Positions 851-27,647 of a stretch of DNA of 60,698 nucleotides are shown piece by piece. Positions within the stretch are counted from its first letter, which is position 1. Every line of letters starts with the position of its first letter. The notes beneath the pieces were generated by a model. It had not been told where the DNA came from, ran no database searches, and worked only from the letters and a program-made list of their open reading frames with translations. Where the stretch lies: assembly GCA_964430025.1 (NCBI GenBank), contig CAYSFA010000001.1, positions 1 through 60,698 on the forward strand, in the 5' to 3' direction. The DNA is from an uncultured Anaerolineaceae bacterium. Its GTDB lineage: Bacteria > Chloroflexota > Anaerolineae > Anaerolineales > Anaerolineaceae. The position numbers and the translations under genes were made by a program.

Positions 851-1957
851 TCATTCATCTTCATTCTCCATTGGCTCATCTGTTGTTACCTTCAACACCT
901 GAACTTTTGATTTTGGTACAGCTAATTTGGGTTTTCCTCGTTTAAATTCCGCGATTGGATCATTGTGTACCTCAGCGGTAATTGGCTCGTTCTCAGCCCA
1001 CCAATCAACCTCTTCGAGTGTTTCCTTCTTCTCCTCCAAAACTTCAATTTTCTCATCCTGATTATTATTGATTGGTTGACCTTCGGTAGATGGCTGATAA
1101 GGAATTTCTTTCGGCGATTCCTCTTCTAAGGTGGGTGAAAAAGTAATTGGTTGAAGCAATTCTTTTTTCACTTCCTTCCCAATTCCAGGTGTTTCATTTG
1201 GTTCTGGTACCATTTCTAATTGATCTTGCGCATCCGAATCAACATCAACTGTAAACCGGAAAATTGGTTCAACATTCAAAACTACCGGAATAATTACTTC
1301 TTCAGTTGGATAGGCATTAACAGCAAGAACCCTGATTTTAATGGGGCAATAACCTGCAGGTGGTCGCACACCTAAATGAAAAAAGCGAATTTGAAGTTTC
1401 TCCTCCCCACCTGGATACAAAAGTGGAGCTGGATCAATCTGGTAACAATCTGATGGTAATCCCTCCAAATCCATTTCAAATTGGCTTCTTTTTTCCTGCC
1501 CAAAATTCTTAAGGGTGATCAACCCGGTTAATTTCCTTCCTTCTTTAAGATCGAGTGAAGGCATCTCAAACGTAACACCAATATTTTCACTTCGCTTTTC
1601 TAATGAAATTCCATTCGCGGACTGGAGGTAAAAAGTTAATTGAAAGTCACCTAATTTCAGGCTATCTCCATCCTCTAAATTTCTGGATCCTTTGGCAGGA
1701 ACAACTACATTCCCTCTTGCTCCTGCTAACGACAAAGCCAATGGTTCATTCACGAGATTTACCATTTTGAAATTTCGCCTGTCAGTTTGTGTGCTGATAA
1801 GTTGTAGATGAGCACTTGCGACTCCACTTCCATACTCATCAGGAAGGACAATATCATTGAAACCTGCGCTGCCAATCATTGTCAAGGCTTTGGTTATCGG
1901 AAATGTTTTTGCCCATCCATTTCTGTCAATGACGTAAACTGATCCGTTGTAATTCAT
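851..1957 (-). CDS. FHA-domain protein with a central Ig-like (CARDB-like) region and an acidic C-terminal tail
   Basis: N-terminus fits the FHA pattern (TMIGSAGFNDIVLPDEYGSGVASAHLQLI ... NLEDGDSLKLGDFQLTF). The track start at 1969 is TTG. The ATG at 1957 is preceded by GGAG (ttGGAGaaaaccATG), so 1957 is preferred. Confidence 0.6.
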   Translation of the reverse strand: MNYNGSVYVIDRNGWAKTFPITKALTMIGSAGFNDIVLPDEYGSGVASAHLQLISTQTDRRNFKMVNLVNEPLALSLAGARGNVVVPAKGSRNLEDGDSLKLGDFQLTFYLQSANGISLEKRSENIGVTFEMPSLDLKEGRKLTGLITLKNFGQEKRSQFEMDLEGLPSDCYQIDPAPLLYPGGEEKLQIRFFHLGVRPPAGYCPIKIRVLAVNAYPTEEVIIPVVLNVEPIFRFTVDVDSDAQDQLEMVPEPNETPGIGKEVKKELLQPITFSPTLEEESPKEIPYQPSTEGQPINNNQDEKIEVLEEKKETLEEVDWWAENEPITAEVHNDPIAEFKRGKPKLAVPKSKVQVLKVTTDEPMENEDE

Positions 1958-1988
1958 GGTTTTCTCCAAATCATTTCTTCAACTCCAA

Positions 1989-3119
1989 TCAAGCGCCTTT
2001 ATACTTATCTTTCCACCCAAGAATAAATGTAAGCAAGTTTGATCCCCACTCAAAAGCTGTGCGTAATTCTCCTCGGGTTGGTTTGCGATCTTTCGCTTCT
2101 CCATTCCACAAAGCGCCATAATTAAAAGTGCTGAGGACACCACCATTTCCACTCAACCATTCTCCATCAGAAGTAAATCCTTGCGGGACTTCTACAAAGA
2201 AGTATGGTTCGGATAAGAGGGCATCACATTTCAATGCATTTCCTTTCAATTCCAATTGGATTTCTTTCGCAACAGCTTTGAATGAGTCTGCTGCCAGGCT
2301 ATCAACAGCTTCCATGAAAAGAAAACCACCTCGAGTAATATAACCTTGTAATCCTTTCAATTGGGCACTCGTCAGCTTAAATTTTCCAGAACCGACCAGA
2401 TAAATGAAGGCGTTTCCCAATACGCCAGGATCAAGCTGAACATCATCGTTCACAACCAGGTTGATGTGGTCTGATTTCCGAGCTACTTCAGCAAGTCGAA
2501 TCAACCCTTGACCTTGAATCTTTTCATTCACTTCCCCTAAATAAATAACCGCCGAAGTTAATAATTGTTCACTATTTAGTGAAATATTTCTACGGAAACG
2601 TAAATCAATCTCATTAATCTTCGGACCTTTCGCATTATCAGCATCATTGATATTTGAAGTCCGATTTTCTCTTGTGAATCTAGCCAGCTCTACCATAGAT
2701 CTTTCTGGAACCGATTGTCTGGCAGTGATTAAAAATTCATCTTGAAGAAAAGCGAGCCCTGAGCCATCATTATTCTTCTTCAAATTTGTGGTGGATTCAC
2801 GTTGAATGATCGTTAAATACAATGGCCCATCGATCTCATCCCCTAAATCATAGGCAACTGGTTCTGAAAGAACAATCACTTTCCCATAAGGATCGATGGC
2901 GATCCCAGGAAGGATAAATACCATTGAATCAGGGGGATCACTCGCTACTACTTCCAACCCAACCAAAATTCCAGAACCATGGAAGAAAAGGTTGTGAGCC
3001 TGGTTATATTGACGGTGAAAATCATGCGCTTGATTCCAAACATCAGCGGTAACTGACATTCCATCATAAGGTTTGATTCGTTTCTTGGGGAATAAATTCA
3101 ACAAATTCTCAGTGCTCAT
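1989..3119 (-). CDS. hypothetical CIS baseplate-distal protein in the Afp13 (fibre) slot; C-terminal half resembles DUF4159
   Basis: ATGA start/stop overlap with the gpI-like gene. The segment AFIYLVGSGKFKLTSAQLKGLQGYITRGGFLFMEA ... LLSEPYFF ... VLSTFNYGALW recalls the DUF4159 pattern. This is from memory and not computed. No fibre-like repeats or knob motifs are visible. Confidence 0.35.
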   Translation of the reverse strand: MSTENLLNLFPKKRIKPYDGMSVTADVWNQAHDFHRQYNQAHNLFFHGSGILVGLEVVASDPPDSMVFILPGIAIDPYGKVIVLSEPVAYDLGDEIDGPLYLTIIQRESTTNLKKNNDGSGLAFLQDEFLITARQSVPERSMVELARFTRENRTSNINDADNAKGPKINEIDLRFRRNISLNSEQLLTSAVIYLGEVNEKIQGQGLIRLAEVARKSDHINLVVNDDVQLDPGVLGNAFIYLVGSGKFKLTSAQLKGLQGYITRGGFLFMEAVDSLAADSFKAVAKEIQLELKGNALKCDALLSEPYFFVEVPQGFTSDGEWLSGNGGVLSTFNYGALWNGEAKDRKPTRGELRTAFEWGSNLLTFILGWKDKYKGA

Positions 3120-9677: not shown

Positions 9678-12527
9678 TCAAAATAGCCGACCAGAATTCC
9701 TTTCTTTTTCAATCGCAATCCAGCGTTTTATAATCGGATATACATCCTTCGCTAATTTTTCCAAATCAACCTTAACATCTACCAATTCTGTGGGTTGTGG
9801 AGAAATTTCAATATTTTCATTCGAACTTTCAATCTGTCGTTGAACGACCGGACCTTGAACTTCCATTTCTGGTTTGAAATATCCCTCAGTGGTTTCTACT
9901 TTTTTTGTCTTCACCACAGGCAACTCAACCTCAGATGGTTTTGGTTTTGGATAGCTTTTCCCTGAATTAGCTTCCTTTTGTGGTTGCAAAGGGATAAGTG
10001 TTAACTTTTCTGAACGAGGAGATTGCTTTCTTTGTGAAGGTGAAGATTTTATAATTTCAGATGAAGTTGTTTTATTAATTCTTCCGCCAGGTTTTTGTTG
10101 ACTGCGCTGAGAAATAATTACAGGCGGTATTCCACTGACCTCATCAAGTTCGGAAGGCTTCTTTTCAATGGATCGAGCCGATTGGTCAATTTTTCTTTGG
10201 ATCGTTTTTCTCCCTGGCGATGAGATCAACAACCTGTCCTGAAAAGAAGGTGTAAAAATCCTTTTTGGCTGAGAACCAGTCAAATTCTTTTGTTCCTGGG
10301 TTCTTTTTGTTCCCTTCATAGACACCAATATCTGATCTCTTATTGATGGAGGTTCTCCGACAACGCTGGGCGATGGAGAAGAACTCTGGGGAACAACACC
10401 TTCATCACCGGAAAGAGTTTGCCTATCAGGTTTGGAAATGTCTCGCAAAATTGGTTTCGAAAGTGATTCAGATTTAGATATGCTTTTTAAAATAATAGGC
10501 AATTTCGGTTTATTTGATTGCCCTTGAACTTTTCGTTTAATATTTGTATTAGTCGTCTCGCTAATTCGTTTTCGAATGTTCCTGGGAGATATATCAATCT
10601 TAATTTTTTCAGGTTGCACATCCAAGGAAGGCTTATCCTTTGGTGTCTGCAATTGTTGGCGTAATGGTTTATCGATCGGGAGAGATTCTGATCTTCTCTC
10701 TTTTGATGAAGATTGAACTTCTGGCTCAGCTCTTTCTTGGTTGATTTCTTGATCTGTCGTCACTTGACGCTGGACAACAGGTTTTTGTGCCGGGGTAATA
10801 CCAGGCCTTTCAATACCAGGATGAAATACAGGTTTTGGTTTCTCCTGTGAAATTTGCTTGTTCTTTTTAATAATTTGATCAGTAAAAGTTTTAATTACTG
10901 AAGGTTGTGACTTTTTCTTGATAACCAATGGTTTATCTAAAATTTCTGGTTTTGTACTGTCCACTAATCTTTCAAGGGTTTGTGGTTCATTTACTTCAGT
11001 TTTTCTATTTGATAACTCAATACTTCGACTTTCTAATTTTTCTGGTTGAGTCTGAGAAGGTACTGGTTTGCTCTGTTTCTGCTTAGGTGTTTCTTCATGT
11101 TTCTCTAAAGCAGTTTGAAGTTTTTCTTCTTTTCTCCTAGTATCATCAGTCGGGAATTTTTGTTCCAATTCTTGTGATGATTCCCCTTCTTTCCTTTTGG
11201 ATTGAACCTGCGGTTTCTTTGCCAAAGGAAAATTCATCTTATCCGTTTCTTCTGATGTCCTGGTTGTTGGCTTTTCATTCATGATGACCGGTTCATGATC
11301 ACCATCTTTGGCCATTTCTCTTTGAATTTTATGATCAAAAGTTTGTTCAAAGGCACGTTCTTTTGTTGTAGGTTTTGGAGAAGATTGATCACTTTCTTTA
11401 TTTTCGCCATTCGAACTGATCTTTTCTTTTTTCTCAGGCGAGATTTCTTTTGGTGATCCCATTTTATTAATGGATGATGAAGAGGGTTGTGTTTGTTTAT
11501 CCTCTGTAATTTTTTTGATTAATTTTTTATCTTCCAGCTTCTCAGGTGAAACTTGTTGCTGGTCGCTTTGGTCATTGTCTGTTTTTGAAAACGACTTCTT
11601 CGGACTCAGAGTCCTAAGTTCTTCTTTGATTTCCTGCTCATGGGAAGGTTTAATTTCTTGAACTGTTCGTTTTGTTTCAAAAGTTTTTTCTGAGGAGTCG
11701 CTCTCCTCTTTCTTCTCCTGAGTGCGAGGAGTCTGATCGATTTGTCTTCTGATGACCTGGTTTTGATCGGTTTTATCAAAAGCGGGATTCTCGATATTTT
11801 CAGTTTTTGAGCTGACTTTTTGAGTGCTTGCTTCTGGTTTTTGTTGTTTTTCCTCTTTTACCTTTGATTTCTCAGGAGGTAAAGTCTTGTCTTCTGAGGT
11901 TGGCACAGAGTTGCTTACCTCTTCTATTTTTCCAGAATATCGACTGGTTTTAGGATGAATTTCTTCAACCTTGCTGAAAGGACGTTGTGGAAGATCACTC
12001 TTCTTGGGTGTTGGTTTTGTATTTTTTCCTTCCTGTGCACTTAAGCGTGCTCGTCTTCTGGCAATGAAAGAAGGTTCACCTTCAGAAATCGGAGGAGGGT
12101 CGAAGGGAGGAATTATTTGTCCACCAATTGGAAGACCTGTTGATAAACCACCTAAAGATGGTTGTGGGGGAATTACAGTTGGAGTCTCAACTGACGCCCC
12201 ATTTTGCAGGAGCATATCCACCTTATCCCAGGACTGACCCTTTGGAGTACTTACTTTCTTTGCACCAAGAGTCATGGGAAGCTGCTTATTTGTCTTGAGC
12301 TTGTCACTAAAAGATTTTATTTTTCCTCTGAGCTTTGTTCCTGGAGGGTTCAAATAATGTTGCTTTACGATGGAAGAAGGCCGAATTATTTTGGAAATCT
12401 TTGATTTAATTTTTGGCAGAATCACACCTGAAGCAGACTTCCTATTGAGAAGTCTGGTAGCCATCGGAGAAATATCAGGCTTGCTGTTATTATTTTGCGC
12501 TGTTGAGGTGTTTTCGATTTCTGCCAT
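9678..12527 (-). CDS. tape-measure-slot protein (Afp14-like by position only); 949 aa, extremely low-complexity K/E/P/S/Q/T-rich with a short structured C-terminus
   Basis: Sits between the tube paralogs and the LysM initiator, where CIS and P2-like tails encode the length determinator. Only the last ~35 aa (VDVKVDLEKLAKDVYPIIKRWIAIEKERNSGRLF) look like an ordered amphipathic helix. No family motif recognised. Confidence 0.45.
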   Translation of the reverse strand: MAEIENTSTAQNNNSKPDISPMATRLLNRKSASGVILPKIKSKISKIIRPSSIVKQHYLNPPGTKLRGKIKSFSDKLKTNKQLPMTLGAKKVSTPKGQSWDKVDMLLQNGASVETPTVIPPQPSLGGLSTGLPIGGQIIPPFDPPPISEGEPSFIARRRARLSAQEGKNTKPTPKKSDLPQRPFSKVEEIHPKTSRYSGKIEEVSNSVPTSEDKTLPPEKSKVKEEKQQKPEASTQKVSSKTENIENPAFDKTDQNQVIRRQIDQTPRTQEKKEESDSSEKTFETKRTVQEIKPSHEQEIKEELRTLSPKKSFSKTDNDQSDQQQVSPEKLEDKKLIKKITEDKQTQPSSSSINKMGSPKEISPEKKEKISSNGENKESDQSSPKPTTKERAFEQTFDHKIQREMAKDGDHEPVIMNEKPTTRTSEETDKMNFPLAKKPQVQSKRKEGESSQELEQKFPTDDTRRKEEKLQTALEKHEETPKQKQSKPVPSQTQPEKLESRSIELSNRKTEVNEPQTLERLVDSTKPEILDKPLVIKKKSQPSVIKTFTDQIIKKNKQISQEKPKPVFHPGIERPGITPAQKPVVQRQVTTDQEINQERAEPEVQSSSKERRSESLPIDKPLRQQLQTPKDKPSLDVQPEKIKIDISPRNIRKRISETTNTNIKRKVQGQSNKPKLPIILKSISKSESLSKPILRDISKPDRQTLSGDEGVVPQSSSPSPSVVGEPPSIRDQILVSMKGTKRTQEQKNLTGSQPKRIFTPSFQDRLLISSPGRKTIQRKIDQSARSIEKKPSELDEVSGIPPVIISQRSQQKPGGRINKTTSSEIIKSSPSQRKQSPRSEKLTLIPLQPQKEANSGKSYPKPKPSEVELPVVKTKKVETTEGYFKPEMEVQGPVVQRQIESSNENIEISPQPTELVDVKVDLEKLAKDVYPIIKRWIAIEKERNSGRLF

Positions 12528-13385: not shown

Positions 13386-13550
13386 TTATGTGGTTACATT
13401 CATTCTTTTATTAATCTTTGCAATCTCTTTTACCCATTGACGACGCTGGCGATGCTCCAGATCGAGTACTTTATCCAGATCCCAATGGAAATGGTAGGAA
13501 ATGTAGGCTACCTCCTCATAGATCTGATCGAGAGGGTAGCCTACGATTCC
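13386..13550 (-). other. -1-frame open extension (53 codons after the G run) with no start codon of its own, reachable from the upstream CDS by a -1 shift
   Basis: Codon-by-codon translation of the -1 frame: ...LGGG IVGYPLDQIYEEVAYISYHFHWDLDKVLDLEHRQRRQWVKEIAKINKRMNVTT*, stop at 13386-13388. There is no ATG/GTG/TTG before Met-48 of this stretch. The frame is closed by TGA just upstream of the G run (13569-13571). Confidence 0.5.
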
Positions 13551-13556
13551 CCCCCC
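13503..13556 (-). promoter_or_regulatory. candidate -1 recoding signal: G8 run (G GGG GGG heptamer) + 5-nt spacer + 10-bp perfect hairpin
   Basis: Coding strand reads aac ttg ggg ggg gaa tcg tag. C8 on the plus strand is at 13549-13556. Spacer is gaatc. Stem gtaggctacc (13544-13535) pairs with ggtagcctac (13512-13503). After one mismatch the stem extends by 5 more pairs (incl. 2 G-U), leaving a 10-nt loop. Confidence 0.5.
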
Positions 13557-13912
13557 AAGTTTGCCAGGTCAATTTCGACTGGTTTTCCACAATGATTACA
13601 GGTCACTGTTCGAGTAGTTTTACCTGTTTCATTGATCTGTTGGTAAAAGGATTGCAAGTACGCCAAATCAGCAGCGAAAAGATTTTCAACAACGCTGGTG
13701 GTAATATGCTGTAATGTGCCTAAACTGGTAATTACCCTGGTTAACAATACAATTATTAAATAGGCTTCATTGGATTGAACACGCATGTCATTTAATGGGG
13801 TAATTTCATCCATTGCAGTCGCCAAACGCATGACTCCGCGTTTATGGAGATTTCCTTCCCGATCAACGTATCCAATTGGTAATTCAAATTCAAATTCAGT
13901 ATGTAAGCTCAT
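13541..13912 (-). CDS. small CIS protein in the tail-assembly-chaperone slot (Afp6-slot; P2 gpE / Mu gp41-like position)
   Basis: 123 aa, sits between the tube genes and the tape-measure-slot gene. The N-terminal pattern FEFELPIGYVDREGNLHKRGVMRLATAMDEI resembles phage tail assembly chaperones (recall only). A single CxxC (CNHC) lies near the C-terminus. Confidence 0.5.
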   Translation of the reverse strand: MSLHTEFEFELPIGYVDREGNLHKRGVMRLATAMDEITPLNDMRVQSNEAYLIIVLLTRVITSLGTLQHITTSVVENLFAADLAYLQSFYQQINETGKTTRTVTCNHCGKPVEIDLANLGGES

Positions 13913-16776: not shown

Positions 16777-17625
16777 TTAGACACTAATTTCCAAAAAGGG
16801 ATTTGGAACAACAAATTTTTCATGCCTCAAAATCCTATCATTGAAAGAAATATCAAGATGATAGGTACCTTGCGTTAATTTAAGAAGCGCAAATTCACCA
16901 TTTTCTAAAACGGGAATTTCTTTTCCTGTTTCTTTCAGTACTAGCTTTAAGGTAACCGGTGAATATTTCTGACTATTTACTTTTCCCCGAACGGAGAAAT
17001 AAGACTTGGAATCGACTAATTTCGCATTCGGATCATCGAATTTTTGACGGTCTGGATCAGGATTTTGTTTGAACCGAACTTCTGAAGTAGCAACTCTGGG
17101 AGAGGTCACAGGTTTATATGGATCAATCGTCAAAGTGACAGTCAAACGAATTCCAGGGTGGGGATCATTGTCAATCATCCCCCAAAAATCTGATAATTTT
17201 TGTAAGCTTTTGCTTTGGCCCACCTCCAATCGAACGGGAACAGGTTGGTTTTTCAGGTTATCTGGAAGCATCTCTTCCGGTATGTAAGCTTGTCGAAGTA
17301 AAGTTGTTAAGGCGGCTGCTAGTAGTTGCTGCTCATCTTGAATTTCTTTCGCCCAGCTAGTTATCAGATAGTAATAATTCATCCGTACCGGATTCCGATG
17401 TAGAGTAACTGTTCCATCCCCATTGTCTGTTTGAGTCCACTGTTCAGAGCCTCTTAATTCAATGTTTTCTAAAATATCGTACATATAAATATTTAGTGTT
17501 GGCTTACTTAACCGGGATGACCATTCCTTCTTGGGAATTTCGAATTGAATATCAACATCGCCTTTCCGAACTGGCATTTCACTGAGAAGCAGCTTCCGTA
17601 AAGCTTCATTCAACTCATAGATCAT
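16777..17625 (-). CDS. DUF4255 (Pvc16_N) tail terminator/cap protein (Afp16-like)
   Basis: MIYELNEALRKLLLSEMPVRKGDVDIQFEIPKKEWSSRLSKPTLNIYMYDILEN matches the DUF4255 N-terminal pattern as I recall it. It overlaps the upstream gene by 11 nt. Confidence 0.75.
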   Translation of the reverse strand: MIYELNEALRKLLLSEMPVRKGDVDIQFEIPKKEWSSRLSKPTLNIYMYDILENIELRGSEQWTQTDNGDGTVTLHRNPVRMNYYYLITSWAKEIQDEQQLLAAALTTLLRQAYIPEEMLPDNLKNQPVPVRLEVGQSKSLQKLSDFWGMIDNDPHPGIRLTVTLTIDPYKPVTSPRVATSEVRFKQNPDPDRQKFDDPNAKLVDSKSYFSVRGKVNSQKYSPVTLKLVLKETGKEIPVLENGEFALLKLTQGTYHLDISFNDRILRHEKFVVPNPFLEISV

Positions 17626-18184
17626 AACCGGGGAACTCCTCTGCCTTGGTGTTAAGTCTCACTAAATCTTTTATATAAGTGTACAAAGACATTACTCCAG
17701 ACGCAATTAGATTCAGACTGTTAATTCGTAACTGGGAATAATAAGCCATCGCATTTACTGTTTCCATCACGAGATCAATACTGGGTTCATCTCCCATAAC
17801 CTCCAAAACATGGCGATAATAAATAACTTTCTGGCTCTCATTCATGCCAAACGCACCAATAGGTGTGGACCAATTAGCCATTAATATCAAACGTGCCAAA
17901 TCCGAAATGGCTTCCTTTTTGAAATCAAACGGAAAGCGAATATAAAACTGCAGGAAATCCACTTTGGAATCATTAAATTCCTGTGATATTAGAGAAGCAT
18001 CAGGATCTGTGTTCGCCAGCTCCAATAAATCACTCAGGTAAAAAATCGTTAGTGCTAAATCGGAATCCTTCTCCAAAACAACAACGAGTTGTTCTTTGGT
18101 GTTGTCTTCGTTTAAGGGAACTTCGTAAGACTCATACCCCTGTTGAAGCAAGCCTTCTTTTATGTCCTTAAGAATTATTTTCAC
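17615..18184 (-). CDS. hypothetical acidic 189-aa protein between cargo and cap; possible YbjN/T3SS-chaperone-like fold, or an immunity protein
   Basis: No definitive motif. Acidic, with alpha/beta-looking segments (LVVVLEKDSDLALTIFYL, FLQFYIRFPF, IGAFGMNESQKVIYYRHVLEV). GTG start with GAAAGGA RBS. The call rests mainly on position. Confidence 0.3.
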   Translation of the reverse strand: MKIILKDIKEGLLQQGYESYEVPLNEDNTKEQLVVVLEKDSDLALTIFYLSDLLELANTDPDASLISQEFNDSKVDFLQFYIRFPFDFKKEAISDLARLILMANWSTPIGAFGMNESQKVIYYRHVLEVMGDEPSIDLVMETVNAMAYYSQLRINSLNLIASGVMSLYTYIKDLVRLNTKAEEFPGYDL

Positions 18185-18200: not shown

Positions 18201-21200
18201 TTAGAGCTTTGATAATTTCGATTTTATTAATGCAGTGGCTGCGGCTTCATCCTCGTCAATCCAGGAGGTATAAGAGGTAGTATCTCCTAAATTAATTAGG
18301 TTGATTTTCAAAACATTCACGACAAATTCAGCCGCTTTCTTGCTTGTGTTGGCATCCGAACTCCTTAGCAAGCCGATCAGATTTGTAGCCTGAGTATTTA
18401 ACTCAGAATCACTGGGCTTATTTTTCTTTTCTGCAATCATCTGTCCAATGCCACCAAGAATCCCTAAACCACTCATAGCTGCACCAGCAATTCCTAAGCC
18501 AAAACCACCTTCTTTTGACATTCCAGCCAAGCTACCAATACCACCAATCGTACCTAAGCCACTTCCAAGAAATGAAGTAACAGATTTAAAAATTCCGAAC
18601 CCTTTTCCTGTCTTATTCTGATTCTTTGCGGTAAATTGAGCAATCGCGTTCATTTTAACTTCATCGCTCGTTAATGCCCCACTAGCGGGAGCTGCTTTGA
18701 TGAATCCTTTGGCGGCACTACTTCTTTTCCTGGCGCTGTGCATCGAAGCGCTGCCTTTGCCCAATCCTAGTCCGGAACCTATCATCCCAAAGAAGCCACC
18801 AGCCACACCAAGGCCACTGGAAGCTTTGTCAGCACTATCTCCTGAAGGATCATTGGCTTTGATAACATTGCCTGAAAAACTCGAACCACTACTCGCCATA
18901 CCAAAAACTGATTGTGAAATTCCCCATCTTCCGCGGGATTTTTCTTTTTCTCCGTATAGTTTTGACGCTTTGGAACTGTTTTTGTCCGACATTTTGCTGC
19001 CACGCCGTAGTTGAGAAATACTGCCCAACAATGATCCACTGGAAGCCAGGAAATTTCCCGCGTCTGCAGCCGCGCTGGTACCAGCTCCAGCCCTGTCCAA
19101 TGTTTCATTATCCCCCGTACCCTTGGAAAGACTGGTAATTGACCCCGCCAACCCAACGCTACTAAGAACGGTATCTGTTGCGCCATGTCCTGTTACTTCC
19201 CCAATTTTATCCATGGCATTTTCTTTTTTGTCTCTTCTGAACTTCGCATTATTGATTGCTTTTTGTATCTCAGGAATTGTGGATTTCGAAAGAGCATCAC
19301 CTCGTATTAGTGCCCCTAATCCATTCCAGTAGGAAGGGGACATTTGAGGATAAGCATCTTTTATTTTCTTCCAATCAGCTGCGGAAGAGATATCCCGTTC
19401 ACCACCATCCAATGGCCATATCCCAGATACTGCTGCTGCCCCTAATTCACCTAATTGAGCATCATTTAATCCAAATTCCAGAAGATAACCTCTTCTTTCA
19501 TTGCTTGTGATTTTTGTCCAATTTGATAAACTCAATTTAAGTTTAGAAGTAATGTTTGTGAAAATTCCATCATCCTTAATTGGATTTCTGTTTTTGTCAA
19601 GCGGCCAATTTCCCTGGAGAGCTAGTACCACCAAATCTCCAATGTAAGATTTAGTGCCATTAGATAATAGAAAACTTCTTTGGTCTTTGTCAGCTATGGA
19701 AAGCCATTTTGCTAATGAAATTTTCAAAGTTTCGGTGATTGTTTTGAATTTATTATCGTCCAGGATATCCTGGTCACTTTCACCTTTTGGCCAACTACTT
19801 TGAAGAACAAGTTTGACTAATTCTCCTATGTAAGTCATTGAACTATTATCGAGCAGGAATCCTCTTCTTTCTTTCGTAATAGATAGCCAATTTGTCAAGG
19901 ATATTTTCAGGCTGTTAGTGATTTTAGTTAAATTACCATCATCAAAAATAAGTGCATCACTGCCATCTTTCGGCCATTTTCCTTGAATAACCATCCCAGC
20001 TAATTCAATAGCGTAAGATTTAATTCCATTATCAAGAAGACATTTTCTTTTGTTAAGATCCGTAATTCCCATCCAATTATTAATGGAAAGTTTAAAGGTT
20101 TTTGTCAGTAGACTTAATTTTTCATCGCTTAAAATTTCTTGATCATTTCCATCCTTTGGCCATTTGTTGGATAAAGCCAATGACACTAGTTCTGTAGCAT
20201 ATGGTTTAGTGCCGTTCTCCAAAAGGAATTTTCTTTGGGGTAAATTCGAAATATTAAGCCATTGATCAAGGGTAATATTCAAGGATTTTGTGATAATGTT
20301 GAATGAATTTGCATCCATGATATCCTGATCATTCCCGTCTTTTGGCCATTTACCCTGGAGAGCTAAATTCAATAATTGTTTTACGTATGGTTTTGTACCA
20401 TTCTGTAACAGGAAACCTCTTTGTTTTATCTCGCTAATCGTTTGCCATTGATCCAAAGCAATATTCCATGTAACAGTGATTAATTTATATGAATTTTCAT
20501 TAAGGATTTCCTGATCATTGCCATCTTTTGGCCATTTTGCTGCAAGTGCCAACTCTGCTAATTTAACCGCATACAGCTGTGCACTATTTTTCAACAGGAA
20601 GTCTCTCTGTTTTTTATCTGAAATGGTTTGCCACTTATCTAAAGAAATTTTCAGGGTGTCAGTGATAGTCTTAATGATATTCTCATCAAGAATGAACTGA
20701 TCATTTCCATCTTTTGGCCAATTACCCTGAAGGGCCAAATCAAATAATGTTTTTGCAAAAGGTTTCGTTCCATTCCCTAAGAGGAACCCTCTTTGGGTTT
20801 TTTCCATAATCGAGACCCATTGATTCAAGGTTTTTCCAAGTACCTCAGTGATGGTTTTGTAGCTATTCTCATCAGAGATATCCTGATCGTTACCATCTTT
20901 CGGCCAATTCTTAGTTTTAGCAAGTGCGATTAGATCCTGGATAAATGTTTTATCTTTCAAATCTATTAACAATTTTTTGTAAGGTGCATCCAATGTTGCC
21001 CAATCAGCGAAAGATACTTTTAGAGTTTCTATAATGATTCTCAATTTTGTTATCCCAGTTATCTCTGCACCAGATTCATCTTTTGGCCATTGTGATGCTT
21101 TCAATGCTGTGACTAACATTTGTGCTATCGCTGGATCCGATTTAACTAAATCCATTATTATTTTCTGTTTCTCTTGGGGAATGTTGTCCCAATCAGCTTG

Positions 21201-22064
21201 ATCCAACACACCTGCGCCTTGCACCAAGGCTAAATCCGCTGGGCTCAGACCTGGTTTGGGAGCTGGAGCTGGGGTTGAGGTTGTTTGGGATGGTGGAGTT
21301 GTGCCTTGCGGAGGAGTAGTGTTGGTTTGGGTCCCTCCCTTTGAGAATACACCACCGATTTTTGATTTTATTCCAGCCATTGTTAAACGTTGAACAGTAT
21401 CAGGGGTGGTGGAAGTAACCCCTTGAGATTGTCGTTGCCCAGATTTAGCAAATCCTTCTGCCTCATGTTCAAATTTATCATTTGGATCCCCTAACTTCAA
21501 TGGCCCATTCGATGCAGAACCGGAGGATTGTTGTACCACATGAGTCAACTCATGCATAAGAGTATCACGTCCTTCTTCTGAGTTGGGAGAGTAAGCTCCT
21601 TTTCGGAAGAAGATATCATTACCAATTGTGAAAGCTTTGGCTTGGATTTTCCGGCTGACAGTATCTGCCCGTTGATCAGCATGCAAACGAACATTTTCAA
21701 AACTTTTCCCAAATTTTGATTTCATCTGTTCAGAGACATCTGCCTGTAACGGTTGCCCGCCAGATTTTGCTCGTTGAATTTCATTGGTCACATATTTATT
21801 CAAAAACCCAGTCTGATCAACTACTGGATCTTCTGTTTTAGCAGGTTGAATTATTCTTCTTACTTCATTATTTCCATAGCGGTTTTGTAACGTTTGAATC
21901 ACCTGTGGAGTGGATTCCATCGGAGATTTAACTGCATGGATCAATTGGTCCACTGATTCAAATTGATTCTGAATCAGCTGTGGTTTCGAAAACTCATGTT
22001 TTTGGATATCATGTTCCTGATTCTTTTCCTTACTTTTCAGGTGTTCATTTTGAGTTTTTGCCAT
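18201..22064 (-). CDS. DUF4157 zinc-metallopeptidase-like (HEXXH) protein with ten ~62-aa repeats and a Gly/Ser-rich glycine-zipper C-terminal region; candidate CIS cargo/effector
   Basis: The DUF4157 core GGQPLQADVSEQMKSKFGKSFENVRLHADQRADTVSRKIQAKAFTIGNDIFFRKGAYSPNSEEGRDTLMHELTHVVQQ has HELTH at nt 21540-21554. It is followed by a Pro/Thr linker, then 10 WP(K/L)(D/G) repeats, then GxxxG-rich hydrophobic segments. ATG at 22064 (track GTG at 22070). Overlaps the ATPase gene's 3' end by 20-26 nt. Confidence 0.85.
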   Translation of the reverse strand: MAKTQNEHLKSKEKNQEHDIQKHEFSKPQLIQNQFESVDQLIHAVKSPMESTPQVIQTLQNRYGNNEVRRIIQPAKTEDPVVDQTGFLNKYVTNEIQRAKSGGQPLQADVSEQMKSKFGKSFENVRLHADQRADTVSRKIQAKAFTIGNDIFFRKGAYSPNSEEGRDTLMHELTHVVQQSSGSASNGPLKLGDPNDKFEHEAEGFAKSGQRQSQGVTSTTPDTVQRLTMAGIKSKIGGVFSKGGTQTNTTPPQGTTPPSQTTSTPAPAPKPGLSPADLALVQGAGVLDQADWDNIPQEKQKIIMDLVKSDPAIAQMLVTALKASQWPKDESGAEITGITKLRIIIETLKVSFADWATLDAPYKKLLIDLKDKTFIQDLIALAKTKNWPKDGNDQDISDENSYKTITEVLGKTLNQWVSIMEKTQRGFLLGNGTKPFAKTLFDLALQGNWPKDGNDQFILDENIIKTITDTLKISLDKWQTISDKKQRDFLLKNSAQLYAVKLAELALAAKWPKDGNDQEILNENSYKLITVTWNIALDQWQTISEIKQRGFLLQNGTKPYVKQLLNLALQGKWPKDGNDQDIMDANSFNIITKSLNITLDQWLNISNLPQRKFLLENGTKPYATELVSLALSNKWPKDGNDQEILSDEKLSLLTKTFKLSINNWMGITDLNKRKCLLDNGIKSYAIELAGMVIQGKWPKDGSDALIFDDGNLTKITNSLKISLTNWLSITKERRGFLLDNSSMTYIGELVKLVLQSSWPKGESDQDILDDNKFKTITETLKISLAKWLSIADKDQRSFLLSNGTKSYIGDLVVLALQGNWPLDKNRNPIKDDGIFTNITSKLKLSLSNWTKITSNERRGYLLEFGLNDAQLGELGAAAVSGIWPLDGGERDISSAADWKKIKDAYPQMSPSYWNGLGALIRGDALSKSTIPEIQKAINNAKFRRDKKENAMDKIGEVTGHGATDTVLSSVGLAGSITSLSKGTGDNETLDRAGAGTSAAADAGNFLASSGSLLGSISQLRRGSKMSDKNSSKASKLYGEKEKSRGRWGISQSVFGMASSGSSFSGNVIKANDPSGDSADKASSGLGVAGGFFGMIGSGLGLGKGSASMHSARKRSSAAKGFIKAAPASGALTSDEVKMNAIAQFTAKNQNKTGKGFGIFKSVTSFLGSGLGTIGGIGSLAGMSKEGGFGLGIAGAAMSGLGILGGIGQMIAEKKNKPSDSELNTQATNLIGLLRSSDANTSKKAAEFVVNVLKINLINLGDTTSYTSWIDEDEAAATALIKSKLSKL
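19290..21150 (-). repeat. in-frame tandem coding repeat, 10 units, central units exactly 186 nt (62 aa)
   Basis: The conserved core tggccaaaagatgg (plus strand ...ccatcttttggcca) ends at 21089, 20906, 20720, 20534, 20348, 20162, 19976, 19793, 19617 and 19417. Spacings are 183, 186, 186, 186, 186, 186, 183, 176 and 200 nt. The outer boundaries of the array are approximate. Confidence 0.85.
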
Positions 22065-24258
22065 TTCCACCTTCCTTTTGCGTCAATAACAGATCCTTAT
22101 CCTGGACCAATCTACCCATTTTTTGCATTTCCCTGCGAATTGCGTGAAGCAAATGCTGATTCGAAACATACGAGTTCTCACTCGCGGCTAGAAATGATGC
22201 GCTGATTATGACATTTCTAATCGAGCCACCGGTTAGTTTAAAACGATCACCTAATTCATTCAAATCAATATCCTCAGCCAGTGGGACTTCAGCGGGGAAT
22301 AATACTTTCCAGATCTTTTGTCTTTCCTTCTCATCTGGGAATGGAAAATCAACGATAAATTGAATTCGGCGGGTAAAAGCTTCATCCATGTTCGAACGGA
22401 GATTGGTCGCCAGGATGACTACTCCATCGTACGTCTCCATACGTTGGAGTAAATATCCTACTTCGATATTGGCATAGCGATCATGAGCGTCTTTTACCTC
22501 TGACCGTTTTCCAAAAATAGAATCAGCTTCATCAAAGAATAGAATTGCATTGCTGTTTTTTGCCTGGCTAAAAATCCTCTCTAAATTCTTTTCCGTTTCA
22601 CCAATATATTTACTAACAACGGTAGAAAGATCAATTTTGTACAAATCCATTCTCAATTCAGCTGCGATAACTTGTGCTGCAAGAGTTTTGCCAGTTCCTG
22701 GTGGACCTGCAAATAAAGCCGACACACCTGCATAAGGCATTAATCTTTTCCCTACTCCCCATTCATCCAAAACCACTGATCGCCAACGAATAGTATTCGC
22801 TAATTCACGCAGAGATTGAATTCCATCTTCAGGGAGAACTATATCTTCCCATTTATATCTGGGTTGAATTTTTGTTGCCAACGTATTCAGATGATGGCTG
22901 GAATAAAACCTGGCTGCTTCATATAAATCATCAATTGTGGTGGGCATTCCTTTACTGATAGCAAGATCTTGTGCAGAAAAAGCAACATTCTGGATCTGAC
23001 TGGCCGAAAGGTTAAACTGATTTGCGAAAATCTCTAATTCCTGGTCATCAATACGAGAATTGTCGCCAAGATATTCCTTCCAAATATTTAGTCGTTTCCC
23101 ACCAGGAGGATTTACACAATTCAGCCAGAATACAGGCTTGTTGTTTTCTTTTTGATTTCGAAGGATTGGCCAATTCTTTTCCTGATGAACTAGAACTGTA
23201 TCCTCAAAGTTTAAGAATTGTTGGAAGAAAGTATCGATTTCTTCATTGGTATTAAAAACAGCATCCAACCCGGTGATCATAGGAATTGCACCAGACAATT
23301 TCACATCCCTCATGAATATTCTGAATAAATCATTTTTTGATTGATCGTTGATCTGTAATTTATCCAGCTCTAGAACCAATAATGATTGTTCTTGTTTGGC
23401 AGCGATGTGATCAGAAATGTACTGCTTTTGTAATACATCATGACCATAAAGAATAATGATTGGTTTTTGTTTCAGAACAAAGTCCAATCCCTCAGGAAGA
23501 TCGAAAATTTCTGAGGTTCTGTTATTCATTGTAGGTGCTATCAAAGTTAAGCCTTCAGCAAGATATTTATCCGGTTGAAATTCACCAATTAACCATGAAA
23601 TAACCTCACCTGGAACGATGTAATTTTGCTTTAATATTGGCTTTTCGGCAGATTGAATATCTGAATAATTTCTGATCAGGTGGTTCTTGATCAAAGTCGA
23701 TGATTTATTAAAATACTTCAGATAAGTAAGTTTTTCAAAATCCGGTTTTAACAACAAATCAAAGATTAAAGAAATACTCGCGTACTTAGTGGTGACATCA
23801 TCATGTAGAAATCCAAAAATTTTCTCATAACGAGTATCCAACATAGGAGACAGGCAAACCAGAAAAGCATTAAATTCAAATTCGGATAAATTAAATAAAT
23901 TTCTAAATTCTTCAAGTTTTAATTTCTTGTTTTCAACCGAAGCTTGTGTCTTAATTCGGTCGATTTCCTCCGCAACCTGTTTTCTCAAATGAGTAAATTG
24001 TTGAATTTCTTCTTCTGGTAATGAACTGATCGACCCCCAATTTCCACCGATTGGTTGTTCGAGTACTTTCTGAATTGTTCCTTCTGAAATAAATAAACCC
24101 CTGAAATTTTCCGAGAAATTCAGACCGGCCAATTCCCAGCGCCGTATAGCTTCTCGAATATGCAAATCAATTTTTAGTAAATATAAATGCAAATACTGAA
24201 AATTTATATGCATTAAATTTTCAATATTGTCATCACTTTTCCAATATGTGTCTTCCAC
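22045..24258 (-). CDS. AAA+ ATPase (Afp15/Pvc15-like), first gene of the CIS operon
   Basis: C-terminal AAA module has Walker A GPPGTGKT and Walker B AILFFDEADSIF, preceded by a long N-terminal domain. GTG start at 24258 with GAAGGA 6 nt upstream. Confidence 0.85.
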   Translation of the reverse strand: MEDTYWKSDDNIENLMHINFQYLHLYLLKIDLHIREAIRRWELAGLNFSENFRGLFISEGTIQKVLEQPIGGNWGSISSLPEEEIQQFTHLRKQVAEEIDRIKTQASVENKKLKLEEFRNLFNLSEFEFNAFLVCLSPMLDTRYEKIFGFLHDDVTTKYASISLIFDLLLKPDFEKLTYLKYFNKSSTLIKNHLIRNYSDIQSAEKPILKQNYIVPGEVISWLIGEFQPDKYLAEGLTLIAPTMNNRTSEIFDLPEGLDFVLKQKPIIILYGHDVLQKQYISDHIAAKQEQSLLVLELDKLQINDQSKNDLFRIFMRDVKLSGAIPMITGLDAVFNTNEEIDTFFQQFLNFEDTVLVHQEKNWPILRNQKENNKPVFWLNCVNPPGGKRLNIWKEYLGDNSRIDDQELEIFANQFNLSASQIQNVAFSAQDLAISKGMPTTIDDLYEAARFYSSHHLNTLATKIQPRYKWEDIVLPEDGIQSLRELANTIRWRSVVLDEWGVGKRLMPYAGVSALFAGPPGTGKTLAAQVIAAELRMDLYKIDLSTVVSKYIGETEKNLERIFSQAKNSNAILFFDEADSIFGKRSEVKDAHDRYANIEVGYLLQRMETYDGVVILATNLRSNMDEAFTRRIQFIVDFPFPDEKERQKIWKVLFPAEVPLAEDIDLNELGDRFKLTGGSIRNVIISASFLAASENSYVSNQHLLHAIRREMQKMGRLVQDKDLLLTQKEGGNGKNSK

Positions 24259-25559: not shown

Positions 25560-27647
25560 TTACCGAGAAATTATCGGCAGGTAAGAGACAAAAACCTTTT
25601 CAAATGAGAGTTCATAAATTGCTTCTGTTCCAAAAAGAGCATCATAAAGAGGTTCAATTTTTACAAAATATCTTCCTGGGTTTTCAACTTCAAAAATCAA
25701 TCTCAAGTCCTGACCTGCTCCCACAGCTTGGGAGCTACTGATAATCGAACCTTCATTCTCTAAAAATACGGTTGCTTTTACCGCACTTCCGCCAGTGACT
25801 GACCTGACGTATACCTGATAATTCCCAGGTTCGGTAACTTCTCTCGTGAACCAATCCGGATTTTTGGATGTACATAAATTTCTCTGAGGAAGATCATCAG
25901 GGGAAATTCCATACGCCTGAGCTATGGAATCATCCGGCTCAAACCCATCTGGGTCACAGCCTGTCGGCATGGAAGCAGTTGTTTCAGAAATATCACCTGC
26001 TGGCCAGGCTTCCAACTGATTATTATTATCGATGGCACGTAATCTGAATTCGTAGGTTTCCCCGGCTTGACCCACAAACCAAGCCGAGCGTTGATTTCCT
26101 GAAATTGTAATTTGGTTGTTAACTGACCAATTTCCGGACATCGTTTTCCATTGGAGTTCAAAAGCAGAGATTCCTGCTCCACCTGAATTAGCCTGCCAGG
26201 TTAATTTAATTGCAGTTGAATCAAAACTTTCCGCAGGATTCAAAGAACTTGTAGGTGGAGGGCAAGCATGGTCCACAATAATTTTTCTGGGGGATAAATT
26301 GGAAGCGACATTTCCTTCATGATCCCAAACCCGCAAGGCAACTTCCAATTCCCCATTCAAAGGTGCAACAGTGCATAAGTTGACATCCCAGTCATAATTT
26401 CCACCAGATCCATTGGTAACTTGTGGACCAATCCCAACCCATTGATTATTGATTTTCGCGACTAATTGGACCGCTTTAACCCGAACATCATCATCAGCAT
26501 TCGCCGTGACATCTATGTTTGGGTTGTTTCCAGTTGCGACAATGTCACCAGCTGCAGGTCGGGATAAGCTGCCGGTGGGAGGATATGCCCCTATATTTCC
26601 TGACACGAACCAATCGTTTGCTGGGTTTCTCGGATCAGATTTATTTCCCAAACATTGGGTTGCGTTATCAAAAATCTCAAATTTAGATACCTCGTAACAG
26701 GTACGAGGGATCCCCCCATTAATTAGTACATCTGCAAAGCGAACATCGATCGACCTGCCCCAATAATACCCACTTGCTTCCCACAACGAATCCACAACCA
26801 TAAAATGAACGTGGTTCGAGGTGCTATAACCTGTATCATCTGTATCGCCAAGATACTCACCTCTTTTTACAGTTCTACCTTTGGTTAATTTATCAGGAAT
26901 GGTGCCTTGAGCAAGATGAAGATAGATTTGATAAGTTGACCCATTTGTATCTATCAAAACAATATAATTCGTACAAGATGAATTTCCATTCGTACAACTA
27001 TCTTTTGATGCTTCCACAGTTCCTTCTTTGGATGCCACCAGTGGAAAATGATCTGTGTTTGTAAAATCATAGGCATATCTACACACACTTTCATCACAGG
27101 ATGGGTACCCTAACTCAGGGATATTTTGAAAATGACTAATAGAACCTTCCAACCATTGCTTGGTACCTGCCACATAAGGGAGGTAGTACCCTGTTAGTGC
27201 CAAAGGTTGATTTAATTCATCCAATTTAACATCTTTGGGAACTGATTTCATTTCTGCAGGGAGTAAATTCTCGGGAATTTGCGAATACACAAAGTCCCAA
27301 TCCGAATCACCCATTAAGACAACTTCCCATTCCCCTTTCACCAGTCTTCCGATTGCCAAACCAGGTTCTGAAGCCAATTTTCGCCCATATTCATCCCGTA
27401 AAGCCAACCAAATGACAGCTAAATCACCATCCTCATTTAAATAAACAGAATCAATCTCGGGAGTAAACACATCTATTGATATCGTTGATTTGGTAGTTGA
27501 AATTTGAATCTTCTGGTCAAAAGCAACAGTCAATTCATTGACGATTTTTTCAGACACCGGCTCAGTATCAGGAGGTTCAGTGGCAGCAATCAGAAAAATT
27601 GCTGCTACAGAAAATATAATAAAGAGAAAGAATTTAATGGTTCGCAT
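25560..27647 (-). CDS. secreted M23 (LytM-type) metallopeptidase with fibronectin-III and pre-peptidase C-terminal (PPC) domains
   Basis: Signal/anchor MRTIKFFLFIIFSVAAIFLIAA. M23 motifs RGEYLGDTDDTGYSTSNHVHFMV. FN3-like TAIKLTWQANSGG...TYEFRLRAID. PPC-like DGFEPDDSIAQAYGI...NPDWFTREV. Confidence 0.75.
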   Translation of the reverse strand: MRTIKFFLFIIFSVAAIFLIAATEPPDTEPVSEKIVNELTVAFDQKIQISTTKSTISIDVFTPEIDSVYLNEDGDLAVIWLALRDEYGRKLASEPGLAIGRLVKGEWEVVLMGDSDWDFVYSQIPENLLPAEMKSVPKDVKLDELNQPLALTGYYLPYVAGTKQWLEGSISHFQNIPELGYPSCDESVCRYAYDFTNTDHFPLVASKEGTVEASKDSCTNGNSSCTNYIVLIDTNGSTYQIYLHLAQGTIPDKLTKGRTVKRGEYLGDTDDTGYSTSNHVHFMVVDSLWEASGYYWGRSIDVRFADVLINGGIPRTCYEVSKFEIFDNATQCLGNKSDPRNPANDWFVSGNIGAYPPTGSLSRPAAGDIVATGNNPNIDVTANADDDVRVKAVQLVAKINNQWVGIGPQVTNGSGGNYDWDVNLCTVAPLNGELEVALRVWDHEGNVASNLSPRKIIVDHACPPPTSSLNPAESFDSTAIKLTWQANSGGAGISAFELQWKTMSGNWSVNNQITISGNQRSAWFVGQAGETYEFRLRAIDNNNQLEAWPAGDISETTASMPTGCDPDGFEPDDSIAQAYGISPDDLPQRNLCTSKNPDWFTREVTEPGNYQVYVRSVTGGSAVKATVFLENEGSIISSSQAVGAGQDLRLIFEVENPGRYFVKIEPLYDALFGTEAIYELSFEKVFVSYLPIISR

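Follow-up and report, generated by a model that had tools for sequence, protein, structure and literature searches.

The DUF4157 gene and its operon

The window analysed here, a stretch of 60,698 nucleotides (nt) from an uncultured Anaerolineaceae bacterium (GenBank assembly GCA_964430025.1, contig CAYSFA010000001.1, positions 1 to 60,698), carries a complete contractile injection system (CIS) operon on its minus strand, from 24258 to 851. The gene that follows the AAA+ ATPase gene in this operon encodes a protein of 1287 amino acids (aa) with a DUF4157 (eCIS_core) domain, a tandem repeat array and a Gly-rich C-terminal module, and it is itself followed by a gene for a 189-aa acidic protein, here called the partner. 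The DUF4157 protein, termed the cargo for brevity, is probably an effector of a Streptomyces-type (class IId) CIS in this bacterium. The parts of the cargo gene and its immediate neighbours are listed below with the evidence for each.

18201..22064 (-): whole cargo gene, DUF4157/eCIS_core protein, 1287 aa plus stop codon (open reading frame [ORF], MAKTQN start, Pfam)
21753..22064 (-): N-terminal region, aa 1-104, polar and probably disordered (composition, charge-hydropathy, conservation map)
21519..21752 (-): eCIS_core (DUF4157) domain, aa 105-182 (Pfam)
21216..21518 (-): linker, aa 183-283, with conserved GPLKLGDPNDKFExEAE and VQR motifs and then a Pro/Thr-rich stretch (composition, conservation map)
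19356..21215 (-): ten tandem helical repeats of ~62 aa, aa 284-903 (repeat hidden Markov model [HMM]; AlphaFold2 [AF2] on the last three units)
18420..19355 (-): C-terminal module, aa 904-1215, a short helical lead-in and then a basic Gly/Ser/Ala-rich region (composition, conservation, AF2)
18204..18419 (-): C-terminal tail, aa 1216-1287, three helices ending ..WIDEDEAAA.ALIKSKLSKL (AF2 pLDDT ~90, conservation)
17615..18184 (-): partner, 189 aa, YbjN / type III secretion chaperone fold (Pfam, AF2, Foldseek, synteny)
22045..24258 (-): Afp15/Pvc15-type AAA+ ATPase (WHD and AAA), its 3' end overlapping the cargo start by 20 nt (ORF, Pfam)
16777..17625 (-): Pvc16_N cap / tail terminator gene (ORF, Pfam)

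The operon reads AAA+ ATPase, DUF4157 cargo, 189-aa partner, cap, sheath, two tube genes and a 123-aa tail-assembly-chaperone-like gene, followed by a tube-like gene, a 949-aa gene, the LysM tube initiator, VgrG, PAAR, gp25, gp6/J, P2-I, a 376-aa gene and a 372-aa gene. The partner gene starts 16 nt past the cargo gene and overlaps the cap gene by 11 nt. An earlier sequence-only reading of the region had described the overlap of the cargo gene with the 3' end of an Afp15-like ATPase gene and, downstream, a small acidic protein followed by the cap gene, and both descriptions were borne out (ORFs, Pfam and an isoelectric point [pI] of 4.4 for the partner). The order ATPase, DUF4157, partner, cap, sheath is kept in the 12 related loci that cover this slot, some of them cut at a contig end. 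The window sheath was closest to the Streptomyces CIS structures 8bky/8bl4 (E 1e-161, full length), with the sheaths of the Anabaena tCIS (5e-56) and AlgoCIS (6e-52), and likewise those of PVC and Afp, much further away. Because of this sheath match, and of the Anaerolineaceae and Chloroflexia relatives described below, we assign the machine to the Streptomyces-type systems of class IId, here within a lineage of filamentous Chloroflexi; a distribution of class IId systems that includes filamentous Chloroflexi was noted earlier (PMC10020575).

The N-terminal half of the cargo

The cargo ORF could be read from a GTG codon (18201..22070 on the minus strand, 1289 aa). As MAKTQN forms the N-terminus of all 18 full-length relatives (18/18), the start was placed at the ATG at 22064, in agreement with the 1287 aa given in the sequence-only reading. 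The eCIS_core profile of Pfam (PF13699, the renamed DUF4157) matched aa 105-182 with an E-value of 4e-28 (97.8 bits against a cut-off of 22). The HELTH motif lies at aa 171-175 in ATG numbering (nt 21540-21554); it is the motif previously given as H173/E174/H177, a correct identification with residue numbers counted from the GTG. HELTHV was invariant in 19 members of the cargo family, and HExxH is intact in the window protein. The first 104 residues are rich in Q, K, E and N and have a mean hydropathy of 0.378, on the disordered side of the charge-hydropathy boundary (0.417), a call that is a composition-based proxy only. The conserved islands within this region are MAKTQN and LQxxYGNxxVxR, the second of which is also present in distant DUF4157 proteins, and by analogy with characterised CIS cargo the region is a candidate loading signal. 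The polar N-terminus, the DUF4157 core with HELTH and the Pro/Thr linker described from the letters were each recovered here by Pfam or composition.

A unit-wise variable repeat array

The ten repeats of ~62 aa proposed earlier were confirmed at the protein level. All ten units passed the repeat HMM (i-E < 0.01), with a mean pairwise identity of 38%, a period of 61-63 aa and W anchors running from aa 326 to aa 883, and they follow the consensus W..I....QR.FLL.N..K.Y...L..LAL.G.WPKDG.DQ.I.D.....IT..L.I.L. A DNA tandem-repeat finder reported nothing on the cargo gene because the copies are only ~48% identical at the DNA level. AF2 was run on cargo aa 718-1287 with the family alignment (pLDDT 76, pTM 0.66), and in the resulting model the last three repeats had pLDDT > 90, with confidence even across the unit borders. 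Each modelled repeat consists of four short helices and a beta-bridge at the WPKDG.D..I.D loop; this acidic loop may bind metal ions.

Copy numbers of 3, 4, 5, 6, 8, 9, 10 and 14 were found among the cargo family. In close relatives the units are positionally orthologous and the insertions and deletions comprise whole units: protein P0001 lacks unit 3, P0002 lacks units 2-5 and P0004 retains units 1, 2, 9 and 10. The repeat is absent from the libraries searched. NCBIfam (whole protein) returned nothing, Pfam on the repeat region returned noise only at E up to 10, and PHROGs, searched with the whole cargo, gave one weak summed repeat match to phrog_18373 (function unknown). A tblastn search of three repeats against 50,697 phage records gave no match. 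A survey for the repeat, suggested by the sequence-only reading for DUF4157 proteins, showed it to be restricted to its own family: it is confined to about 30 protein clusters, and in a HMMER search of 1.84 billion representatives no protein beyond the cargo family matched the repeat part of the profile.

The C-terminal module and tail

The ~250-aa Gly/Ser-rich region noticed earlier is present. Residues 956-1215 contain 20% G, 16% S and 12% A, have a net charge of +12 and a pI of 10, and include five uncharged Gly-rich segments. Three Gly-rich segments, at aa 1084-1102, 1162-1180 and 1188-1206, are weakly hydrophobic. The segment 18423-19165, singled out by the sequence-only reading as the part to be expressed alone, corresponds to aa 967-1214. 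Conserved motifs in the C-terminal module are RG..M, SMHSARKRS.AAK.F and IAQFT.KNQNKTGKG. GxxxG, named in that reading for the hydrophobic segments, is close to what composition predicts, with 12 seen against 9.8 expected from the glycine content; [GAS]xxxGxxxG has four matches in the module. The real feature of the region is its glycine richness, with no specific motif. On the Hessa scale the best 19-aa windows had insertion energies of +2.5, +4.3 and +4.6 kcal/mol, so that the Gly-rich helices are not conventional transmembrane segments and are at most conditionally membrane-active. With GxxxG at the composition level and all insertion energies positive, a glycine-zipper reading of the module was downgraded. 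The pore-forming C-terminus suggested earlier is a weak idea, given a best insertion energy of +2.5 kcal/mol and no significant toxin match in sequence or fold. Glycine-zipper toxins that depolarise membranes (e.g., Tse5-CT, TelE, TspA) belong to secreted multidomain proteins whose C-terminal end has weakly hydrophobic helices rich in Gly, Ala and Ser. The C-terminal helices of the cargo are similar, but there is no sequence or fold match to these toxins and the neighbouring gene encodes a soluble protein, not a membrane immunity protein.

In the AF2 model the Gly-rich region forms five or six long helices of 30-45 residues with pLDDT 40-88, and confidence is lowest over the most hydrophobic Gly-rich stretch. 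The helix-like tail of ~70 aa was confirmed as 72 residues in three helices with pLDDT ~90, and the extreme C-terminus, ..ALIKSKLSK[FL], is kept in every full-length cargo member. Foldseek searches with the model (last three repeats plus C-terminus) against PDB and BFVD gave best E-values of 0.3-0.7, none significant. In BFVD, tape measures appeared only at E 0.5-5 with a probability of <=0.1; these and the pore-former SmhA stayed within the noise, and neither was used as evidence. Pfam on the C-terminal region at E up to 10 gave noise only, and a PDB sequence search with the whole cargo or the family profile gave no match.

A partner with a type III secretion chaperone fold

The partner (21.6 kDa) has a pI of 4.4, against a pI of 10 for the Gly-rich module of the cargo. 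That this small acidic protein has a YbjN / type III chaperone fold had been missed by the sequence-only reading. Its Pfam match to YbjN is marginal (22.3 bits against a cut-off of 22), and the same weak match was reproduced in 18 of the 19 partner homologues. The AF2 model is that of a soluble globular protein (pLDDT 91). Foldseek matched it to YbjN-family structures (DR_1245, PA14_16140, Tll0839, YbjN, AmyR; probability ~1.0) and to type III class I chaperones (ExsC, SicP, VecA, SigE, Spa15, CesT, SycH), with probabilities of ~1.0 for most of the chaperones and 0.75-0.8 for CesT and SycH, and E-values from 7e-4 to 0.2 overall. The partner is like the class I chaperones of type III secretion systems (T3SS) and the YbjN proteins in being small, acidic and alpha-beta, and in being encoded beside its presumed client in an operon with an ATPase. 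It is unlike them in its ~40 extra residues, its invariant C-terminal EEFPGYDL tail, its marginal sequence similarity and its place in a contractile system. No link of YbjN to contractile injection systems was found in the literature searched, and a search on cargo loading and chaperones of extracellular CIS (eCIS) gave no paper with a dedicated cargo chaperone in its title or abstract.

Only 27 homologues of the partner were detectable. Searched in one genome per species (185,579 species), it occurred in 6 Anaerolineaceae/Chloroflexia assemblies only, and it adjoins the cargo gene in 12 of the 12 loci covering the slot. Homology extends to the partners beside repeat-less cargo (E 4e-12 and 7e-32), in which the EEFPGYDL tail is missing. 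In the window this tail occupies the last 8 codons (17615-17638), and its general form is E[EF]FPG[YF]DL. The partner possibly docks on the cargo via this tail.

A separate observation concerns its distribution. Eight partners beside WPKDG-repeat cargo were checked for E[EF]FPG[YF]DL (loci L001, L003, both copies of L004, L005, L006, L011 and L012) and have it, L005 in the variant EEVFSGYDL, and it is missing in L013 and L014, where the cargo is repeat-less; the pattern is confounded by phylogeny and co-variation is not established.

The cargo family and its distribution

A word-indexed search of 5.8 billion proteins gave 396 matches, only 18 of which extend past DUF4157, and HMMER with a profile of the last three repeats and the C-terminus found 40 proteins at E <= 1e-3 among the 1.84 billion representatives. 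A profile from a broadened C-terminal alignment, run against the 5.8-billion-protein set, brought nothing further, as Gly-rich word matches dominated its output. The N-terminal part, HELTHV, the linker motifs and a ~380-aa C-terminal part are common to all full-length members. The C-terminal module also occurs without WPKDG repeats in the DUF4157 proteins P0164, P0166 and P0170-P0176, some of which have a coiled-coil insert ahead of the tail and some other W-containing repeats. In both of the repeat-less loci looked up the order is ATPase (where the contig reaches), DUF4157 protein, ~175-aa protein, cap and sheath. Those relatives of the cargo and partner genes that have a named source belong to metagenome-assembled genomes of Anaerolineaceae or Chloroflexia, including one from a biogas fermenter; the distant cargo relatives are all single metagenome sequences.

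One related locus carries the cargo and partner pair in tandem (L004:10001-17030), with a 1040-aa cargo of 5 repeats and a 187-aa partner followed by an 866-aa cargo of 3 repeats and a second 187-aa partner. Identity is 64% between the two partners and 43% between the C-terminal modules of the two cargo proteins. Repeat number also differs between otherwise closely similar machines. The sheath, tube and LysM proteins of the window and of locus L015 are 95-97% identical, and their cargo proteins have 10 and 6 repeats, respectively.

The tape-measure position and other genes of the operon

Two further features of the operon were annotated:

9678..12527 (-): 949-aa low-complexity basic protein in the tape-measure position, outside the cargo (gene order, scans)
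13541-13912 (-): 123-aa gene, phage tail assembly chaperone family phrog_508, E 2.5e-6 (PHROGs)

The 949-aa gene, also missed by the sequence-only reading, sits past the tail-chaperone-like and tube-like genes and ahead of the LysM initiator. Its product is rich in K, E, S, P and Q, has a pI of 9.7 and gave no family match. Orthologues were found at L001:18435-21233, L003:16156-18822, L005:14611-17019, L006:18417-21197, L011:7779-10334 and L015:18790-21648, and they share a conserved, plug-like C-terminal motif, LAKDVYPIIKRWIAIEKERNSGRL. The protein evolves fast but keeps its length: those of the window and L015 are 949 and 952 aa long and only 37% identical. Across six loci the relation of repeat number to tape-measure-like length was weak (r = 0.46) and carried by one locus.

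A short [VIL]QR motif recurs in the 949-aa protein (aa 401, 585, 776 and 895), with 4 copies against 0.73 by shuffles (P = 0.005), and 4-9 copies are present in the five tape-measure-like orthologues examined (L015 left out). The same motif flanks DUF4157 in the window cargo (aa 96 and 224) and in distant DUF4157 proteins. The motif may mark a site for recognition or cleavage.

In related loci a small ORF of 45-56 aa trails the equivalent of the 123-aa gene (e.g., L001:17594-17764), and the two recall the G/GT frameshift pair ahead of phage tape-measure genes. Residues 21-62 of the 372-aa protein at the end of the gene run (851-1969, minus strand) match Yop-YscD_cpl, an FHA-fold domain, weakly and below threshold (E 0.0015; 19 bits, cut-off 33), and the C-terminus of this protein is acidic and of low complexity. 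It may have a regulatory or an adaptor role in the system. The 376-aa protein past the baseplate genes (1989-3119, minus strand) has only a short, weak match to NCBIfam CIS13_fam (32.6 bits against 370) and a weak match to DUF4159. No conventional tail fibre was recognised within the operon. Just upstream of it lies a gene for a 695-aa secreted-type protein (Peptidase_M23, Big_7, fn3, PPC; 25560-27647, minus strand), whose position is kept in two close relatives (L015:2910-4997 and L016:1777-3867), and in the window and L016 a gene for a PEMT/ICMT-like membrane methyltransferase lies between the Peptidase_M23 gene and the ATPase gene.

Comparison with characterised contractile injection systems

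Cgo1 and Cgo2 of Algoriphagus machipongonensis fill the AlgoCIS tube lumen and leave it on contraction (PMC8894135), and their loading requires the N-terminal domain of the cargo and Alg15, DUF4157 being dispensable (bioRxiv 10.64898/2026.05.27.728243). Like these proteins, the window cargo starts with a probably disordered region, has DUF4157 and its HExxH in the centre and ends in a long part that is specific to its lineage; it is similar in size (Cgo2 has 1228 aa), and its CIS cluster also encodes an AAA+ loader. It differs from them in belonging to another CIS lineage (the sheath E-values of 6e-52 for AlgoCIS and 1e-161 for Streptomyces) and in showing no similarity outside DUF4157, and the AlgoCIS descriptions (PMC8894135; bioRxiv 10.64898/2026.05.27.728243) report no repeat array, Gly-rich module or YbjN-like partner. 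Two DUF4157 proteins were also present in Anabaena tCIS preparations while remaining invisible in the map (PMC8894136).

The likeness to the Streptomyces systems lies in the class IId lineage, in the filamentous bacterium and in the effectors, which fill the lumen and carry membrane-interacting helices. Sco4256-58, which are toxic in E. coli, fill the tube lumen and contain a transmembrane segment (PMC10066040). They are described as having one transmembrane domain together with C-terminal domains that are ricin-like or of other types, and DUF4157 is unmentioned for them. In S. lividans the DUF4157 protein Sle2 binds spike-complex proteins, and Sle1, with a C-terminal helical hairpin, reaches lipid membranes (PMC13277306). 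Together the two look like a split version of the DUF4157-plus-helical-module fusion in the window. Sle1 has a 440-aa coiled coil with remote tape-measure similarity, a similarity not found for the window cargo, and the sle genes are placed in reverse direction upstream of the sheath gene, whereas the window cargo and partner lie within a same-strand gene run. The descriptions of the Streptomyces CIS (PMC10066040, PMC10020575, PMC13277306) report no partner with a T3SS-chaperone fold. Tme of Streptomyces davawensis, a giant DUF4157-first CIS effector with membrane helices (PMC11126660), resembles the window protein in its large size, its domain order, its predicted membrane helices and the modular make-up of its C-terminus. 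Its gene lies directly upstream of the baseplate genes, a slot taken in the window by the 949-aa gene, and Tme is ~70% disordered with remote tape-measure homology and a terminal EndA-like nuclease, none of which were found in the window cargo.

Proposed function of the cargo and alternatives

The view that the cargo gene encodes an effector of this class IId system, which we consider probable, rests on the match of its plan (N-terminal region, DUF4157, C-terminal part) to that of Cgo1/Cgo2 and on the precedents in the Streptomyces lineage. The sequence-only reading had called the protein the payload of the system. An eCIS_core domain within a complete CIS operon, a Cgo-like plan, the duplication in L004 and the free variation in repeat number speak for that proposal; no significant toxin match was obtained. 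Its description of the tripartite architecture as unusual needs revision, as the three-part plan is standard and it is the repeat and the C-terminal module that are unfamiliar.

Several observations weigh against the effector reading. Searches of Pfam, PHROGs, PDB and BFVD gave no significant fold or sequence likeness to a pore former, toxin or tape measure. GxxxG is about as frequent as composition predicts (12 vs 9.8), and no segment reaches a favourable insertion energy, the best being +2.5 kcal/mol. The model shows confidently folded repeats, and confidence does not fall between units; a rigid rod of this kind would need unfolding to enter the lumen. In classical polymorphic toxins the variable part is the C-terminus. 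In this family it is the middle, with the C-terminal module and the operon slot conserved, a pattern that could fit a conserved accessory component. The YbjN fold of the partner occurs also in proteins unrelated to secretion.

One alternative is a conserved, non-toxic structural or accessory component (e.g., a lumen filler or plug, or a cap-proximal assembly factor) with the partner as its assembly chaperone. The C-terminal module, the extreme C-terminal motif and the cap-adjoining slot are conserved across diverged loci, the repeat-less ones included, and the conserved extreme C-terminus of such a component could dock on the cap or terminator; no toxin domain was recognisable (Pfam, PHROGs, PDB, BFVD), and each well-flanked locus has one such gene in the slot, except L004 with two. 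We nevertheless regard this as unlikely, because duplication with different repeat numbers in L004, and 10 against 6 repeats on near-identical machines, would be odd for a stoichiometric part and fit an effector better, and because the characterised DUF4157 proteins of the same plan are cargo, unseen in structural maps. The 949-aa gene bears on a further possibility, that the cargo itself acts as the tape measure, a ruler in which the number of repeats determines the length of the tube. The cargo ORF is the longest in the cluster and varies in length by steps of 62 aa, and Streptomyces CIS clusters are reported to lack a typical Afp14-type tape measure. This idea is highly improbable: the canonical tape-measure slot is taken by the 949-aa gene, with its steady length and conserved C-terminal motif, two paralogues of 5 and 3 repeats coexist in the L004 operon, and the link between repeat number and tape-measure-like length is weak. 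No PHROGs tape-measure family was matched by the cargo, the BFVD tape-measure probabilities were <=0.1, and the repeats had no phage match by tblastn. A ruler was disfavoured on the 10 and 6 repeats carried by near-identical machines, the L004 paralogues and the wrong operon position.

The protein could also be cargo whose 189-aa neighbour acts as an immunity (antitoxin) protein that neutralises the C-terminal module, and not as a loading chaperone. The two genes are tightly linked and duplicated together, the neighbour is acidic and the module basic, and toxin-immunity pairs are reported beside some eCIS operons. We think this doubtful, as the partner fold matches secretion chaperones and YbjN proteins and no known immunity family, and the partner gene overlaps the cap gene inside a structural operon. 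Immunity to membrane-damaging toxins usually comes from a membrane protein, whereas the partner models as a soluble globular one. A role in anchoring the machine within the producer cell as a membrane adaptor, with the Gly-rich helices in the producer membrane and the repeat rod as a spacer, would be comparable to that of the putative adaptor Sco4242 of Streptomyces or to the thylakoid anchoring of Anabaena. The machine does belong to the cytoplasmic Streptomyces-type lineage in which Sco4242 was proposed as a membrane adaptor, and a rod of variable length would suit a spacer. Such a role appears quite improbable for a protein with no segment hydrophobic enough for a conventional transmembrane helix and no signal peptide or N-terminal anchor. 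Its gene is at the ATPase/cap end of the operon, whereas Sco4242 lies past the baseplate genes, and its N-terminal DUF4157 plan is that of loaded cargo.

For the effector reading a sequence of events can be proposed. The acidic partner would bind newly made cargo and keep it soluble and harmless in the producer. The partner would likely bind at the N-terminal signal or at the Gly-rich module, which is basic and weakly hydrophobic. The AAA+ ATPase would then recognise the disordered N-terminal region, strip off the partner and feed the chain into the tube lumen, a step that would parallel that of Alg15 and the Cgo N-terminal domain in AlgoCIS and resemble the action of the T3SS ATPase on chaperone-effector complexes. 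As Sle2 is reported to do, DUF4157 may attach the cargo to the spike or tube-initiator core. Sheath contraction would expel the cargo, after which the long Gly/Ser/Ala-rich helices of the C-terminal module may associate with a membrane and damage it. The repeat array would be a helical rod or spacer of variable length, built of small, easily unfolded units, and not a ruler. More tentatively, the two unfamiliar elements may be read jointly, the partner as a T3SS-like dedicated chaperone that hands the cargo to the Afp15-type unfoldase and the repeat as a spacer made to unfold and refold easily, whose copy number would tune the share of the lumen that one cargo molecule fills or the reach of the membrane-active end.

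Significance for cargo handling by contractile injection systems

The DUF4157 class of CIS cargo is already known. What appear to be undescribed are the 62-aa repeat with its unit-wise change in copy number, the Gly-rich C-terminal module and the co-inherited partner with a type III-chaperone fold. The engineering of contractile injection systems is limited by the open question of how they select and load their payload, and only a disordered N-terminal signal and an AAA+ protein have been implicated in loading so far. A cargo family that travels with a chaperone-fold partner offers a concrete, testable third player in cargo handling, in a lineage that also includes the Streptomyces cell-death CIS. 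The family further provides a natural series in which one cargo carries 3 to 14 helical units on otherwise near-identical machines, and in which the effect of cargo length and foldedness on loading can be followed. Should it prove membrane-active, the conserved Gly-rich module would give the class IId systems of filamentous bacteria a new effector domain.

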